A stretch of 64,000 nt of DNA, from NCBI RefSeq assembly GCF_048403405.1, contig NZ_CP183129.1; one strand, written 5' to 3'. This stretch comes from Escherichia coli (GTDB lineage: Bacteria; Pseudomonadota; Gammaproteobacteria; Enterobacterales; Enterobacteriaceae). Positions 46,229 to 64,000 of the stretch are shown piece after piece (position 1 is the first letter of the stretch; the number at the start of each line of letters is the position of its first letter). The position numbers were made by a program, and so were the translations under genes. The notes beneath the pieces are model-generated. The model saw only the letters and a program-made list of their open reading frames with translations. It was not told where the DNA came from and made no database searches.

Positions 46229-46327
46229 CCGGGAGATTTCAGACGAAAGTTTGAAAGATGCTGGATATAGAGTATCCTGACGCTGTTTTTAACACAGTTG
46301 TAATAAGAGGTTAATCCCTTGAGTGAC

Positions 46328-48262
46328 ATGGCGAAAAACCTAATACTCTGGCTGGTCATTGCCGTTGTGCTGATGTCAGTATTCCAGAGCTTTGGGCCCA
46401 GCGAGTCTAATGGCCGTAAGGTGGATTACTCTACCTTCCTACAAGAGGTCAATAACGACCAGGTTCGTGAAGCGCGTATCAACGGACGTGAAATCAACGT
46501 TACCAAGAAAGATAGTAACCGTTATACCACTTACATTCCGGTTCAGGATCCGAAATTACTGGATAACCTGTTGACCAAGAACGTCAAGGTTGTCGGTGAA
46601 CCGCCTGAAGAACCAAGCCTGCTGGCTTCTATCTTCATCTCCTGGTTCCCGATGCTGTTGCTGATTGGTGTCTGGATCTTCTTCATGCGTCAAATGCAGG
46701 GCGGCGGTGGCAAAGGTGCCATGTCGTTTGGTAAGAGCAAAGCGCGCATGCTGACGGAAGATCAGATCAAAACGACCTTTGCTGACGTTGCGGGCTGCGA
46801 CGAAGCAAAAGAAGAAGTTGCTGAACTGGTTGAGTATCTGCGCGAGCCGAGCCGCTTCCAGAAACTCGGCGGTAAGATCCCGAAAGGCGTCCTGATGGTC
46901 GGTCCTCCGGGTACCGGTAAAACGCTGCTGGCGAAAGCGATTGCAGGCGAAGCGAAAGTTCCGTTCTTTACTATCTCCGGTTCTGACTTCGTCGAAATGT
47001 TCGTCGGTGTGGGTGCATCCCGTGTTCGTGACATGTTCGAACAGGCGAAGAAAGCGGCACCGTGTATCATCTTTATCGATGAAATCGACGCCGTAGGCCG
47101 CCAGCGTGGCGCAGGCCTGGGCGGTGGTCACGATGAACGTGAACAGACTCTGAACCAGATGCTGGTTGAGATGGATGGCTTCGAAGGTAACGAAGGTATC
47201 ATCGTTATCGCCGCGACTAACCGTCCGGACGTTCTTGACCCGGCGCTGCTGCGTCCTGGCCGTTTCGACCGTCAGGTTGTGGTTGGCTTGCCAGATGTTC
47301 GCGGTCGTGAGCAGATCCTGAAAGTTCACATGCGTCGCGTACCATTGGCACCCGATATCGACGCGGCAATCATTGCCCGTGGTACTCCTGGTTTCTCCGG
47401 TGCTGACCTGGCGAACCTGGTGAACGAAGCGGCACTGTTCGCTGCTCGTGGCAACAAACGCGTTGTGTCGATGGTTGAGTTCGAGAAAGCGAAAGACAAA
47501 ATCATGATGGGTGCGGAACGTCGCTCCATGGTGATGACGGAAGCGCAGAAAGAATCGACGGCTTACCACGAAGCGGGTCACGCGATTATCGGTCGCCTGG
47601 TGCCGGAACACGATCCGGTGCACAAAGTGACGATTATCCCACGCGGTCGTGCGCTGGGTGTAACTTTCTTCTTGCCTGAGGGCGACGCAATCAGCGCCAG
47701 CCGTCAGAAACTGGAAAGCCAGATTTCTACGCTGTACGGTGGTCGTCTGGCAGAAGAGATCATCTACGGGCCGGAACATGTTTCTACCGGTGCGTCCAAC
47801 GATATTAAAGTTGCGACCAACCTGGCACGTAACATGGTGACTCAGTGGGGCTTCTCTGAGAAATTGGGGCCACTGCTGTACGCGGAAGAAGAAGGTGAAG
47901 TGTTCCTCGGCCGTAGCGTAGCGAAAGCGAAACATATGTCTGATGAAACTGCACGTATCATCGACCAGGAAGTGAAAGCACTGATTGAGCGTAACTATAA
48001 TCGTGCGCGTCAGCTTCTGACCGACAATATGGATATTCTGCATGCGATGAAAGATGCTCTCATGAAATATGAGACTATCGACGCACCGCAGATTGATGAC
48101 CTGATGGCACGTCGCGATGTACGTCCGCCAGCGGGCTGGGAAGAACCAGGCGCTTCTAACAATTCTGGCGACAATGGTAGTCCAAAGGCTCCTCGTCCGG
48201 TTGATGAACCGCGTACGCCGAACCCGGGTAACACCATGTCAGAGCAGTTAGGCGACAAATAA
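46328..48262 (+). CDS. ftsH: ATP-dependent zinc metalloprotease FtsH
   Basis: ATG at 46328 gives 644 aa [20 protein letters not shown]...; AAA Walker A GPPGTGKT and zinc motif HEAGH. Confidence 0.97.
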
Positions 48263-54710: not shown

Positions 54711-54971
54711 TAATCATCTTTTATCGGAGACAGGAAGAGTTTAGTGTGTTTTTTGTAAAATAATGCGCTTAAGGGAGAGCAGGAGAAGGCAAAAGTATTC
54801 AACAAATGAAAGTGAACCGGATATTCATTCACGTGATTAGCAATAAACGTTGACAAAATGTGGCATGGATCACTATAATGCCTGCAGATTTTACGTCCCG
54901 TCTCGGTACACCAAATCCCAGCAGTATTTGCATTTTTTACCCAAAACGAGTAGAATTTGCCACGTTTCAGG

Positions 54972-55048
<77 letters not shown>

Positions 55049-55170
55049 CTTTCCCTTAGAGTCCTTTTTCAAATATACTGTGAAGACTTCGGCCTTCGTA
55101 GTGGGATTTGAAAAAATCCTTCTGGAAAGTGCTCCAGACCGCAGTTGCGGTTATAGGGTTCAGTTATATA

Positions 55171-55196
55171 AAGCCCCGATTTATCGGGGTTTTTTG
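55171..55196 (+). terminator. Hairpin plus U-run in metY-rimP leader (partial terminator/attenuator)
   Basis: aagccccgatttatcggggttttttg. Confidence 0.65.
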
Positions 55197-55254
55197 TTAT
55201 CTGACTACAGAATAACTGGGCTTTAGGCCCTTTTTTTATGTCTTGGGGGTGGGC

Positions 55255-55707
55255 TTGTCCACATTAGAGCAAAAATTAACAGAGATGATTACTGCGCCAG
55301 TTGAGGCCCTGGGTTTTGAACTGGTTGGCATCGAATTTATTCGCGGTCGCACATCCACACTGCGCATCTATATTGATAGTGAAGATGGCATCAATGTTGA
55401 TGATTGTGCTGATGTGAGCCACCAGGTAAGTGCTGTGCTGGATGTTGAAGATCCCATCACCGTTGCTTATAACCTGGAAGTCTCCTCACCGGGTCTCGAT
55501 CGCCCACTGTTCACGGCTGAACACTACGCCCGTTTCGTCGGAGAAGAGGTGACTCTGGTTCTCCGCATGGCGGTACAAAACCGTCGTAAATGGCAGGGCG
55601 TTATCAAAGCGGTAGACGGTGAAATGATCACAGTTACCGTCGAAGGTAAAGATGAAGTGTTCGCGCTGAGTAATATCCAGAAGGCGAACCTGGTTCCCCA
55701 CTTTTAA
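55255..55707 (+). CDS. rimP: Ribosome maturation factor RimP
   Basis: UUG start at 55255 gives 150 aa (M)[24 protein letters not shown]...; the ORF track's 55243 start is 4 codons upstream. Confidence 0.9.
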
Positions 55708-55734
55708 TAGTCTGGATGAGGTGAAAAGCCCGCG

Positions 55735-57222
<1,488 letters not shown>

Positions 57223-57246: not shown

Positions 57247-59919
57247 ATGACAGATGTAACGATTAAAACGCTGGCCGCAGAGCGACAGACCTCCGTGGAA
57301 CGCCTGGTACAGCAATTTGCTGATGCAGGTATCCGGAAGTCTGCTGACGACTCTGTGTCCGCACAAGAGAAACAGACTTTGATTGACCACCTGAATCAGA
57401 AAAATTCAGGCCCGGACAAATTGACGCTGCAACGTAAAACACGCAGCACCCTTAACATTCCTGGTACCGGTGGAAAAAGCAAATCGGTACAAATCGAAGT
57501 CCGCAAGAAACGCACCTTTGTGAAACGCGATCCGCAAGAGGCTGAACGCCTTGCAGCGGAAGAGCAAGCGCAGCGTGAAGCGGAAGAGCAAGCCCGTCGT
57601 GAGGCAGAAGAATCGGCTAAACGCGAGGCGCAACAAAAAGCTGAACGTGAGGCCGCAGAACAAGCTAAGCGTGAAGCTGCTGAACAAGCGAAACGTGAAG
57701 CTGCGGAAAAAGACAAAGTGAGCAATCAACAAGACGATATGACTAAAAACGCCCAGGCTGAAAAAGCCCGCCGTGAGCAGGAAGCTGCAGAGCTCAAGCG
57801 TAAAGCCGAAGAAGAAGCGCGTCGTAAACTCGAAGAAGAAGCACGTCGCGTTGCTGAAGAAGCACGTCGTATGGCGGAAGAAAACAAATGGACTGATAAC
57901 GCGGAACCGACTGAAGATTCCAGCGATTATCACGTCACTACTTCTCAACATGCTCGCCAGGCAGAAGACGAAAGCGATCGTGAAGTCGAAGGCGGCCGTG
58001 GCCGTGGTCGTAACGCGAAAGCTGCGCGTCCGAAGAAAGGCAACAAACACGCTGAATCAAAAGCTGATCGTGAAGAAGCACGCGCAGCAGTACGTGGCGG
58101 TAAAGGCGGAAAACGTAAAGGTTCTTCGCTGCAGCAAGGCTTCCAGAAGCCTGCTCAGGCCGTTAACCGTGACGTAGTGATCGGCGAAACCATCACCGTT
58201 GGCGAACTGGCGAACAAGATGGCGGTTAAAGGCTCTCAGGTCATCAAAGCGATGATGAAACTGGGCGCAATGGCAACCATCAACCAGGTTATCGATCAGG
58301 AAACCGCACAGCTGGTTGCTGAAGAGATGGGCCACAAAGTTATCCTGCGTCGTGAAAACGAGCTGGAAGAAGCGGTAATGAGCGACCGTGACACGGGTGC
58401 AGCGGCTGAACCGCGCGCGCCGGTTGTGACCATCATGGGTCACGTTGACCACGGTAAAACCTCTCTGCTGGACTACATTCGTTCAACGAAAGTGGCCTCT
58501 GGCGAAGCGGGCGGCATTACCCAGCACATTGGTGCATACCACGTTGAAACTGAAAACGGCATGATCACCTTCCTGGACACCCCGGGGCACGCCGCGTTTA
58601 CTTCAATGCGTGCTCGTGGTGCGCAGGCAACGGACATCGTAGTCCTGGTTGTTGCTGCCGACGACGGCGTAATGCCGCAGACCATCGAAGCAATCCAGCA
58701 CGCGAAAGCGGCGCAGGTTCCGGTGGTCGTTGCAGTGAACAAGATCGATAAACCAGAAGCCGATCCGGATCGCGTTAAGAACGAACTCTCCCAGTACGGC
58801 ATCCTGCCGGAAGAGTGGGGCGGTGAAAGCCAGTTCGTACATGTGTCTGCGAAAGCGGGTACTGGTATCGATGAGCTGCTGGACGCTATCCTGCTGCAGG
58901 CGGAAGTTCTGGAACTGAAAGCGGTACGTAAAGGCATGGCGAGCGGTGCGGTTATCGAATCCTTCCTCGATAAAGGTCGTGGTCCGGTTGCTACCGTTCT
59001 GGTACGTGAAGGTACTCTGCACAAGGGCGATATCGTTCTGTGTGGCTTCGAATACGGTCGTGTTCGTGCGATGCGTAACGAACTGGGTCAGGAAGTGCTG
59101 GAAGCGGGTCCGTCCATTCCGGTGGAAATCCTCGGCCTGTCCGGCGTTCCGGCTGCGGGTGATGAAGTTACCGTTGTACGTGACGAGAAGAAAGCGCGTG
59201 AAGTTGCACTCTATCGTCAGGGTAAATTCCGCGAAGTTAAACTGGCGCGTCAGCAGAAATCTAAACTCGAGAACATGTTCGCCAACATGACCGAAGGCGA
59301 AGTTCACGAAGTGAATATCGTCCTGAAGGCAGACGTACAGGGTTCTGTGGAAGCTATCTCCGACTCCTTGCTGAAACTGTCTACTGACGAAGTTAAAGTG
59401 AAGATCATCGGTTCTGGCGTAGGTGGTATCACCGAAACCGACGCTACCCTGGCTGCGGCGTCCAACGCCATCCTGGTTGGCTTCAACGTACGTGCTGATG
59501 CCTCTGCACGTAAAGTAATTGAAGCGGAAAGCCTGGATCTGCGTTACTACTCCGTCATCTATAACCTGATCGACGAAGTGAAAGCGGCAATGAGCGGTAT
59601 GCTGTCTCCGGAACTGAAACAACAGATTATCGGTCTGGCGGAAGTTCGTGACGTATTCAAATCACCGAAATTTGGTGCCATCGCAGGTTGTATGGTTACC
59701 GAAGGTGTGGTTAAACGTCACAACCCGATCCGCGTTCTGCGCGACAACGTGGTTATCTACGAAGGCGAGCTGGAGTCCCTGCGCCGCTTCAAAGATGACG
59801 TTAACGAAGTCCGTAACGGTATGGAATGTGGTATCGGCGTTAAGAACTACAACGACGTCCGCACTGGCGATGTGATCGAAGTATTCGAAATCATCGAAAT
59901 CCAACGTACCATCGCTTAA
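57247..59919 (+). CDS. infB: Translation initiation factor IF-2
   Basis: 890-aa ORF with charged Ala/Glu/Arg/Lys-rich N-terminal region and GTPase motifs GHVDHGKTS and DTPGH. Confidence 0.97.
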
Positions 59920-59930
59920 GGTTGTCTGGG

Positions 59931-60010
59931 TTGTAGGCCGGATAAGGCTTTTACGCCGCATCCGGCAGCCGTTGCCTGATGCGACGCTCGCGCGTCTTAT
60001 CAGGCCTACA
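59931..60010. repeat. REP (palindromic unit) elements in infB-rbfA spacer
   Basis: Two REP-like palindromes: GTAGGCCGGATAAGGC...GCCGCATCCGGCA and GCCTGATGCGACGCTCGCGCGTCTTATCAGGCCTAC. Confidence 0.85.
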
Positions 60011-60077
60011 CAGCCCTTTCCACCTGAGATTAATTTTAAAAGGGGCTATGGCCCCTTTTTTGTCAGGAGAATTTATT

Positions 60078-60479
60078 ATGGCGAAAGAATTTGGTCGCCC
60101 GCAGCGCGTAGCGCAGGAAATGCAAAAAGAGATCGCTCTCATCCTGCAGCGTGAAATTAAAGATCCTCGTCTGGGCATGATGACCACCGTTTCCGGTGTC
60201 GAAATGTCTCGCGACCTGGCGTATGCCAAAGTATATGTAACGTTCCTCAACGACAAAGATGAAGACGCGGTTAAAGCGGGCATCAAAGCGCTGCAGGAAG
60301 CTTCTGGTTTCATCCGCAGCCTGCTGGGGAAAGCGATGCGCCTGCGTATCGTGCCGGAACTGACCTTCTTCTACGACAACTCGCTGGTTGAAGGGATGCG
60401 CATGTCAAACCTGGTGACCAGCGTGGTCAAACATGACGAAGAACGTCGTGTTAACCCGGACGACAGCAAGGAGGACTAA
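60078..60479 (+). CDS. rbfA: Ribosome-binding factor A
   Basis: ATG at 60078 gives 133 aa [31 protein letters not shown]...; ORF track start 59979 runs through the REP region. Confidence 0.95.
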
Positions 60480-61856: not shown

Positions 61857-61887
61857 GAAAAGGGGGCCTGAGTGGCCCCTTTTTTCA
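61857..61887 (+). terminator. Rho-independent terminator after rpsO
   Basis: gaaaagggggcctgagtggccccttttttc. Confidence 0.85.
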
Positions 61888-61935
61888 AGCTGACGGCAGC
61901 AATTCACTGGAAACTAATGTATTGTTGCTATGAAT

Positions 61936-62032
61936 GATCTTCCGTTGCAGAGGTTCGCGCGGCTAATGAGAGGCTTTACCCACATTGGGCTGGGTTAGGG
62001 TTGTCATTAGTCGCGAGGATGCGCAGAAGATC
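61936..62032 (+). promoter_or_regulatory. pnp 5' leader long imperfect stem-loop (candidate RNase III autoregulatory processing site)
   Basis: Inverted segments GATCTTCCGTTGCAGAGG ... CGCGAGGATGCGCAGAAGATC flanking about 60 nt in the rpsO-pnp spacer; the location matches the known pnp autoregulatory leader; pairing was not computed. Confidence 0.5.
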
Positions 62033-62086
62033 GGGTATTAACACCAGTGCCGTAAGGTACTGTCTAAGAAAGAGAAAGGATATTAC

Positions 62087-64000
62087 ATTGCTTAATCCGA
62101 TCGTTCGTAAATTCCAGTACGGTCAACACACCGTGACTCTGGAAACCGGCATGATGGCTCGTCAGGCTACTGCTGCTGTTATGGTTAGCATGGATGACAC
62201 CGCGGTATTCGTTACCGTTGTTGGTCAGAAAAAAGCCAAACCAGGTCAGGACTTCTTCCCACTGACCGTTAACTATCAGGAGCGTACCTACGCTGCTGGT
62301 CGTATCCCGGGTAGCTTCTTCCGTCGTGAAGGCCGCCCAAGCGAAGGCGAAACCCTGATCGCGCGTCTGATTGACCGCCCGATTCGCCCGCTGTTCCCGG
62401 AAGGCTTCGTCAACGAAGTTCAGGTTATCGCCACCGTGGTTTCTGTTAACCCGCAGGTTAACCCGGATATCGTCGCGATGATTGGTGCTTCCGCAGCACT
62501 GTCTCTGTCTGGTATTCCGTTCAATGGTCCGATTGGTGCTGCCCGCGTAGGTTACATCAATGACCAGTACGTACTGAACCCGACTCAGGACGAGCTGAAA
62601 GAGAGCAAACTGGATCTGGTTGTTGCCGGTACTGAAGCCGCTGTACTGATGGTTGAATCTGAAGCTGAACTGCTGAGCGAAGACCAGATGTTGGGCGCAG
62701 TAGTGTTCGGTCATGAACAACAGCAGGTTGTCATTCAGAACATCAATGAACTGGTGAAAGAAGCCGGTAAACCGCGTTGGGACTGGCAGCCGGAGCCGGT
62801 AAACGAAGCGCTGAACGCGCGCGTTGCTGCACTGGCTGAAGCTCGTCTGAGCGATGCTTACCGCATCACCGACAAACAAGAGCGTTATGCGCAGGTTGAT
62901 GTCATCAAATCTGAAACCATCGCGACGCTGCTTGCTGAAGATGAAACCCTGGACGAAAACGAACTGGGTGAAATTCTGCACGCTATCGAGAAAAACGTTG
63001 TTCGTAGCCGCGTACTGGCAGGCGAACCGCGTATCGACGGTCGTGAAAAAGATATGATTCGTGGTCTGGATGTGCGTACTGGCGTGCTGCCGCGTACTCA
63101 CGGTTCTGCGCTGTTCACCCGTGGTGAAACTCAGGCGCTGGTTACCGCAACGCTGGGTACTGCACGTGACGCGCAGGTTCTTGATGAACTGATGGGCGAA
63201 CGTACTGACACCTTCCTGTTCCACTACAACTTCCCTCCGTACTCCGTAGGCGAAACCGGCATGGTCGGTTCTCCGAAGCGTCGTGAAATTGGTCACGGTC
63301 GTCTGGCGAAGCGCGGCGTGCTGGCAGTCATGCCGGATATGGACAAATTCCCGTACACCGTACGTGTTGTGTCTGAAATCACTGAATCCAACGGTTCCTC
63401 TTCTATGGCTTCCGTGTGCGGCGCGTCTCTGGCGCTGATGGACGCAGGTGTGCCGATCAAAGCTGCTGTTGCGGGTATCGCAATGGGTCTGGTGAAAGAA
63501 GGCGACAACTACGTTGTACTGTCTGACATTTTGGGCGACGAAGATCACCTGGGCGATATGGACTTCAAAGTTGCGGGTTCCCGCGACGGTATCTCTGCAT
63601 TGCAGATGGATATCAAAATTGAAGGTATCACCAAAGAGATCATGCAGGTTGCGCTGAACCAGGCTAAAGGTGCGCGTCTGCATATCCTGGGCGTAATGGA
63701 ACAGGCGATCAACGCGCCGCGTGGCGATATCTCTGAGTTCGCTCCGCGTATCCATACCATCAAGATCAACCCGGACAAGATCAAAGACGTTATCGGTAAA
63801 GGCGGTTCTGTTATCCGTGCTCTGACCGAAGAAACTGGCACCACCATCGAAATCGAAGATGACGGTACTGTGAAAATCGCAGCGACCGACGGCGAGAAAG
63901 CGAAACATGCTATTCGTCGTATCGAAGAGATCACTGCAGAAATCGAAGTGGGCCGCGTCTACAATGGTAAAGTGACCCGTATCGTTGACTTTGGCGCATT
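62087..64000 (+). CDS. pnp: Polynucleotide phosphorylase, N-terminal 638 codons; gene continues beyond window end
   Basis: UUG start at 62087 giving (M)[30 protein letters not shown]...; open frame to window end with no stop, so it is absent from the ORF track. Confidence 0.93.

Follow-up and report, generated by a model that had tools for sequence, protein, structure and literature searches.

The rimP and pnp genes of the Escherichia coli region analyzed here, which begin at positions 55255 and 62088, are very likely ordinary protein-coding genes that are translated from UUG initiation codons. Positions are those of the window, i.e., the whole 64,000-nt stretch of DNA that was analyzed. Both UUG starts are already known and are found in curated annotation, and they represent no new biology. 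An earlier note on this DNA had described them as a known annotation pitfall and not as a novelty, and annotation, comparative data, Shine-Dalgarno analysis and a published pnp toeprint all agree with that description.

Genomic setting and comparison with K-12

The window is E. coli DNA. Positions 54900-55800 match strain 7/2 and others at 100% identity, and at least 80% of this region is carried by 5,424 of 5,426 complete genomes. The gene order across the region is metY, the rimP leader, rimP, nusA, infB, rbfA, truB, the S15 leader, rpsO, SraG and pnp. The earlier note treated these as one “metY-pnp operon”, but they form two classically separate units, metY-rimP-nusA-infB(-rbfA-truB) and rpsO-pnp. 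The nusA start is at 55735, 28 nt past the rimP stop codon, with rimP directly upstream, and this rimP-nusA order is common to relatives at 48-66% identity.

The K-12 rimP gene (b3170, NP_417639.6) is 453 nt long and starts with TTGTCCACA; it has the same start codon and the same 150-aa length as the rimP gene of the window. The 60-nt upstream regions are identical, and the coding sequences differ at only two third-codon positions. K-12 pnp (b3164, NP_417633.4), a UUG-initiated, autoregulated PNPase gene of 2136 nt that starts with TTGCTTAAT, has a start that is matched by that of the window. The TTG, the Shine-Dalgarno sequence and the 5′ UTR are the same, with 1 base different in the 100 nt upstream and 27 nucleotide differences over the 1913 nt that lie inside the window. 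As in the known system, the SraG antisense RNA and the S15 leader are found upstream of pnp. PGAP annotates both genes of strain 7/2 at the same TTGs (rimP as WP_001300397.1), and the K-12 RefSeq annotation agrees.

The metY gene for initiator tRNA-Met (CAU) is at 54972..55048 on the plus strand, as found by ARAGORN, the Rfam tRNA model and comparison with K-12. Window position 55018 (position 47 of the gene) is G here and A in K-12; from metY up to the rimP start, the two sequences are otherwise identical. Judged by its sequence, the metY gene of this strain is that of tRNA-fMet1 and not the minor tRNA-fMet2 of K-12.

The rimP start

The rimP initiation codon is TTG (UUG) at 55255..55257 on the plus strand, as the earlier note had it; it is the K-12 RefSeq and PGAP start, and the window sequence, conservation and a profile match point to the same codon. 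The coding sequence, 55255..55707 (+), consists of 150 aa and a stop codon (453 nt; stop at 55705-55707) and is identified by K-12 and PGAP annotation, Pfam and NCBIfam. The product scores 265.1 bits against NCBIfam NF000927 (cut-off 162), with residues 1-150 aligned to profile positions 1-151, and it displays the RimP_N (PF02576, 100.8 bits) and RimP_C (PF17384, 83.8 bits) domains. E. coli RimP chains in the PDB (7AFI and others) begin with MSTLEQ, although this represents the sequence chosen by the depositors and is not a measurement.

The Shine-Dalgarno sequence of rimP, GGGGGUG at 55245..55251 (+), forms a predicted anti-Shine-Dalgarno duplex of -13.2 kcal/mol, and there is a 5-nt spacer between the GGGGG core and the TTG. 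The motif is conserved in 80/80 related loci, with the variant GGAGGUG in two of the species. More than one Shine-Dalgarno register is possible within the G run. Four in-frame start candidates are present, TTG 55243, GTG 55249, TTG 55255 and ATG 55285. Of these, TTG 55255 alone is preceded by a Shine-Dalgarno sequence; pairing at the other three is -2.4, -2.0 and -2.1 kcal/mol, respectively.

Orthologous rimP loci from 80 different Enterobacteriaceae species were aligned. The codon aligned to TTG 55255 is TTG in all 80, and the residues that follow it are nearly invariant. Third-position (synonymous) variation is 0.25 bits in codons 2-10 vs 0.86 bits in codons 11-150, a reduction that is expected near a start codon. 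Synonymous variation is also low in codons 41-50 (55375-55404; 0.20 bits) and in codons 131-150 (55645-55704; 0.34-0.45 bits), while most other parts of the gene show approximately 1.0-1.2 bits. The 3′ low-variation patch coincides with the reported sites of a cold-inducible promoter, P3, and of ribosome binding for nusA.

The closest competitor is GTG 55249, two codons upstream, which would give a 152-aa protein that begins MGLSTLEQ. This codon is likewise invariant in the 80 Enterobacteriaceae loci, it is the start chosen in 19 of the 120 best database RimP cluster representatives, and in cyaA GUG gives approximately twice the expression of UUG (PMC5499595). However, GTG 55249 is invariant because it is situated inside the GGGGGUG Shine-Dalgarno sequence, and it has no such sequence upstream of itself. 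In addition, the codon between it and the TTG changes non-synonymously (GGC, GGT, GCC, GCG and GAC in the 80 loci, i.e., G, A and D; D, E and V in database proteins), in contrast to the nearly invariant residues past the TTG. As both codons are invariant, the 80 closest loci cannot separate them, and more distant homologues were therefore sought in a search of 1.84 billion representative proteins, followed by inspection of the DNA of seven at 48-66% identity. Among 133 diverse near-full-length RimP representatives, the predicted N-terminus is at the exact offset of the E. coli TTG in 46 and within 3 residues of it in 97.

At the DNA level, the TTG is still found in relatives as distant as 52% in protein identity. 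In the relative at 66% identity (L085), an in-frame TGA stop is found immediately 5′ of the aligned TTG and separates it from the codon aligned to the GTG. In two others (L089 and L090, at 52% and 53% identity) the aligned TTG is the first ATG, GTG or TTG past a stop codon, and in a fourth (L086, 56%) it is found behind GGGAG and a further 5 nt. The aligned codon is GTG in L088 (55%) and ATG in L091 (48%), four codons past a stop in each. The N-terminus of L083/L084 (58%) is ambiguous, as the aligned TTG follows a GGAG but an ATG is present four codons upstream, directly past a stop. From these alignments, the start position is fixed by in-frame stops or the lack of another start codon in four of the relatives, and L085, L088, L089, L090 and L091 all speak against an upstream start. 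The codon aligned to GTG 55249 reads GCA, GTT, GAT or GTA in the distant relatives, none of them a start codon, and translation of rimP from GTG 55249 is thus very improbable. Even less probable are the two starts that simple rules would give, TTG 55243 of the mechanical open reading frame list (154 aa) and ATG 55285, the first in-frame ATG (140 aa). Besides their weak pairing to the anti-Shine-Dalgarno sequence, both are already contradicted by the comparative data. Five of the 80 loci have CTG in place of TTG 55243. The longest-ORF extension is 2, 4, 10, 20 or 49-55 codons depending on the species and therefore does not represent conserved coding sequence. A start at ATG 55285 would remove ten residues that are conserved and correspond to positions 1-10 of the NCBIfam profile.

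Curation, homology and comparison thus make TTG 55255 very likely the rimP start. Direct RimP N-terminal or start-site profiling data were not found in the start-site and N-terminomics papers searched, among them the TetRP study, Salmonella riboproteogenomics and Giess et al., and a full-text literature search for rimP with UUG or TTG returned the PIRT-Seq paper only. The “known N-termini” of the earlier note is therefore a wording that holds for PNPase, for which there is a toeprint (PMC5029454), but for RimP it is stronger than the support from curation, homology and comparison.

The rimP leader

The gammaproteobacterial rimP leader (Rfam RF01770) is found at 55137..55237 on the plus strand with a cmscan score of 102 bits, vs a gathering score of 47, and the match ends 18 nt ahead of the rimP TTG. 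A terminator scan shows two terminator-like hairpins, at 55170-55193 and at 55218-55230, the latter followed by a T tract at 55231-55237. Leader terminators t1 and t2, which are sites of NusA-linked control, have been placed in the region of both hairpins (PMC6511841). The leader is near-invariant across 63 distinct leader sequences. Folding of the RNA from 55137-55300 yields the two terminator hairpins and no convincing structure that sequesters the rimP Shine-Dalgarno sequence or start codon.

A leader open reading frame, CDS115 (55080-55226), has been reported by PIRT-Seq (PMC12350097). It covers the two terminators of the leader, and 28 nt separate its end from the rimP TTG. The CDS115 frame is fused to rimP in Klebsiella and others and results in database proteins of 205-209 aa. 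CDS115 was considered as a conserved coding region that might explain extended RimP forms, and this was rejected: variation shows no codon periodicity (0.85/0.91/0.93 in the N-terminal part), and in the 63 distinct leaders the lengths differ in non-multiples of 3 and conservation is confined to the terminators. From the alignments, the “conserved peptide” looks like a by-product of conservation at the RNA level. It should be noted that the rejection concerns conservation and not translation of the open reading frame.

A 9-codon, out-of-frame mini-ORF at 55238-55267 (ATG TCT TGG GGG TGG GCT TGT CCA CAT TAG) overlaps both the Shine-Dalgarno sequence and the initiation codon of rimP. Of the 80 species, 75 retain the ATG of the mini-ORF (ACG in three, ATT in two), and it has no preceding Shine-Dalgarno sequence.

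The pnp start

The UUG start of pnp is established. The TTG is at 62088..62090 on the plus strand, as shown by the window sequence, annotation, conservation and the toeprint in PMC5029454. The earlier note had the codon right but its coordinate, 62087, is one base off, as 62087-62089 reads ATT. The TTG is followed by CTT AAT CCG ATC, and the translated sequence begins (M)LNPIVRKF. The first 637 codons are present in the window (62088..64000, +; TIGR03591 and Pfam), and the gene runs off the window end. The S1 domain, the 3′ part of the gene and the stop codon lie beyond position 64000. Against TIGR03591, a model of the PNPase family (TIGR03591 / NF008805), the translated portion scores 1012 bits (cut-off 525), and the Pfam domains found are RNase_PH, in two stretches, PNPase and KH_1.

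The pnp Shine-Dalgarno sequence AAAGGA is at 62075..62080 (+) and has a 7-nt spacer, an anti-Shine-Dalgarno duplex of -5.4 kcal/mol and support from conservation. The comparison includes 52 loci that extend into pnp. All 52 have TTG as the pnp start, and an AAGG core is found at the Shine-Dalgarno position in 52/52 (AAGGA in 47 and AAGGG in 5) with a spacer of about 7 nt. The remaining UTR is variable. In 23 of the 52 loci, no other possible start lies between a stop codon and the TTG. The SraG antisense sRNA is opposite the pnp 5′ UTR, at 61858..62029 on the minus strand (Rfam RF00082, 162 bits; K-12 annotation; PMC5029454), and the K-12 annotation carries it to window position 62073, 15 nt short of the TTG.

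Fontaine et al. mapped a 30S/tRNA-fMet toeprint 15 nt from the pnp UUG (PMC5029454). In the same work, a TTG-to-TGA mutant served to block pnp translation, and SraG pairing was found to prevent formation of the initiation complex on pnp (PMC5029454). The remaining candidate is ATG 62019, which is in frame 23 codons upstream and would give a 734-aa protein. The frame is open in E. coli, and the chain sequences of PDB entries 3CDI and 3CDJ include residues from this extension. However, the upstream stretch carries indels and, in 35 of 52 related loci, in-frame stops within the 23 codons; the toeprint is on the UUG; PNPase has 711 aa in current K-12 and PGAP annotation; and most of the other PDB chains of E. 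coli PNPase, e.g., 3GCM, 3H1C and 7OGK, start with the residue of the UUG codon. A start at ATG 62019 is already refuted by the comparison of loci and by the toeprint, and the probability left to it is negligible. The 3cdi_A and 3cdj_A sequences have a Leu at the UUG codon in addition to residues encoded by the 5′ UTR (window 62070-62090), and this extension may derive from an older, longer pnp gene model that started at ATG 62019.

Other starts and elements in the window

An internal in-frame GTG of infB, the start of IF2-beta, is found at 57718..57720 on the plus strand (K-12 annotation; the codons were confirmed in the window sequence). It is followed by the internal start ATG 57739-57741, that of the third annotated infB product, and K-12 RefSeq has three nested infB coding sequences. 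The infB GUG is a third non-AUG start of the region and was absent from the earlier note. It is similar to the rimP and pnp UUGs in that it is ignored by simple ORF rules, and it is in the same transcription unit as rimP. However, it is an internal second start that gives a shorter isoform, and not the sole start of a gene.

The PGAP start of ftsH is ATG 46328 (644 aa). An in-frame TTG, 46319, is found three codons upstream (window 46319-46330), and 8 nt ahead of this TTG there is an AAGAGG Shine-Dalgarno sequence. A ftsH UUG start that is missing from GenBank records was reported in the TetRP study (PMC4909307). With ftsH, the window may contain three genes that start at UUG.

The longest open reading frame of rbfA (59979-60479, 166 aa, from ATG 59979) reads through the upstream terminator hairpin (AAAAGGGGCTATGGCCCCTTTTTT). 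In the annotation, rbfA starts at ATG 60078 (133 aa), behind an AGGAG Shine-Dalgarno sequence; the pitfall is the same as that of rimP, but with an AUG start. In the infB-rbfA intergenic region, an Rfam match to naRNA4 (RF02564, a nucleoid-associated ncRNA) is found at 59936-60006, with 78.7 bits vs a gathering score of 59.5.

Extent of the annotation pitfall

The earlier note stated that a longest-ORF caller misplaces the rimP start and misses pnp, and both are seen in the mechanical list of open reading frames: rimP is given as 55243..55707 (154 aa, TTG start), and pnp is absent because the gene runs off the window end. The problem with pnp would persist if the stop codon were supplied. Its frame is open from 61938, such that the longest-ORF rule leads to TTG 62001 and the first-ATG rule to ATG 62019. 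In rimP the longest-ORF rule misses the conserved TTG in 80/80 species, and the first-ATG rule is wrong in every one of them.

Public sequences show the consequences. Among the best 120 RimP cluster representatives, the TTG position is the start in 60, whereas 38 have a spurious extension of 10-69 residues that comes from the non-coding leader, e.g., a peptide translated from the T tract of the terminator and the Shine-Dalgarno sequence. The residues encoded by the 5′ UTR in the 3CDI and 3CDJ PNPase chains are listed in the PDB. The practical value of the present observations is thus in annotation quality, as longest-ORF and first-ATG rules give wrong N-termini for rimP and pnp. The starts of rimP, pnp and rbfA are best anchored on the Shine-Dalgarno sequence and conservation, and not on ORF length.

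Discussion

Initiator fMet-tRNA reads UUG in the ribosomal P site, and at rimP and pnp it would read the UUG as methionine. In both genes the Shine-Dalgarno sequence would set the 30S subunit on the UUG. At rimP this would be the strong, G-rich GGGGGUG, 5 nt upstream and just past the second leader terminator, and at pnp AAAGGA, 7 nt upstream and within a 5′ UTR that is controlled by RNase III, PNPase and SraG. IF3 treats AUG, GUG and UUG as canonical starts (PMC5499595).

The UUG of rimP, its Shine-Dalgarno sequence, which is G-rich and unusually strong, the terminator T tract 7 nt upstream and codons 2-10, with almost no synonymous change, might together represent a conserved translational control module and not a passively weak start, but this is considered unlikely. 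If true, the module could tie RimP synthesis to terminator read-through. Alternatively it could link RimP synthesis to the state of the 30S subunit or the initiation machinery; the operon encodes initiator tRNA, IF2 and RbfA.

E. coli has approximately 4,300 genes, with a figure of 3% for UUG starts. In a post hoc calculation, the probability of two UUG starts among the 7 protein genes is ~0.007-0.017 at a genome-wide UUG usage of 2-3%. A total of 81 UUG starts had previously been annotated (PMC4909307). Two UUG starts among seven genes is mildly unusual and brings no new mechanism. The mere presence of a TTG triplet carries no weight. Together with the invariance of the codons (80/80 in rimP and 52/52 in pnp), the P value places the use of UUG as a start in these two genes beyond chance.

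Other conserved non-AUG starts are found in gammaproteobacteria: UUG in cyaA, GUG in tufA and hupB, and AUU in infC (PMC5499595). As in rimP and pnp, a single gene retains a rare start codon over many genera, which suggests selection and not drift. The infC gene differs, however, as its AUU is a proven target of IF3 autoregulation, whereas the known controls of pnp (RNase III, PNPase and SraG) act on the 5′ UTR and not on codon identity (PMC5029454).

Conserved non-AUG starts of this type have a 2- to 6-fold effect on yield (PMC5499595). In cyaA, expression from UUG, GUG and AUG is in the ratio 1:2:6, and replacement of the lacZ AUG by GUG or UUG lowers translation 2- to 3-fold (PMC5499595). 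The conservation of UUG across genera suggests that a lowered yield has been selected. The conserved UUG probably holds translation of RimP and PNPase below the level that an AUG would give.
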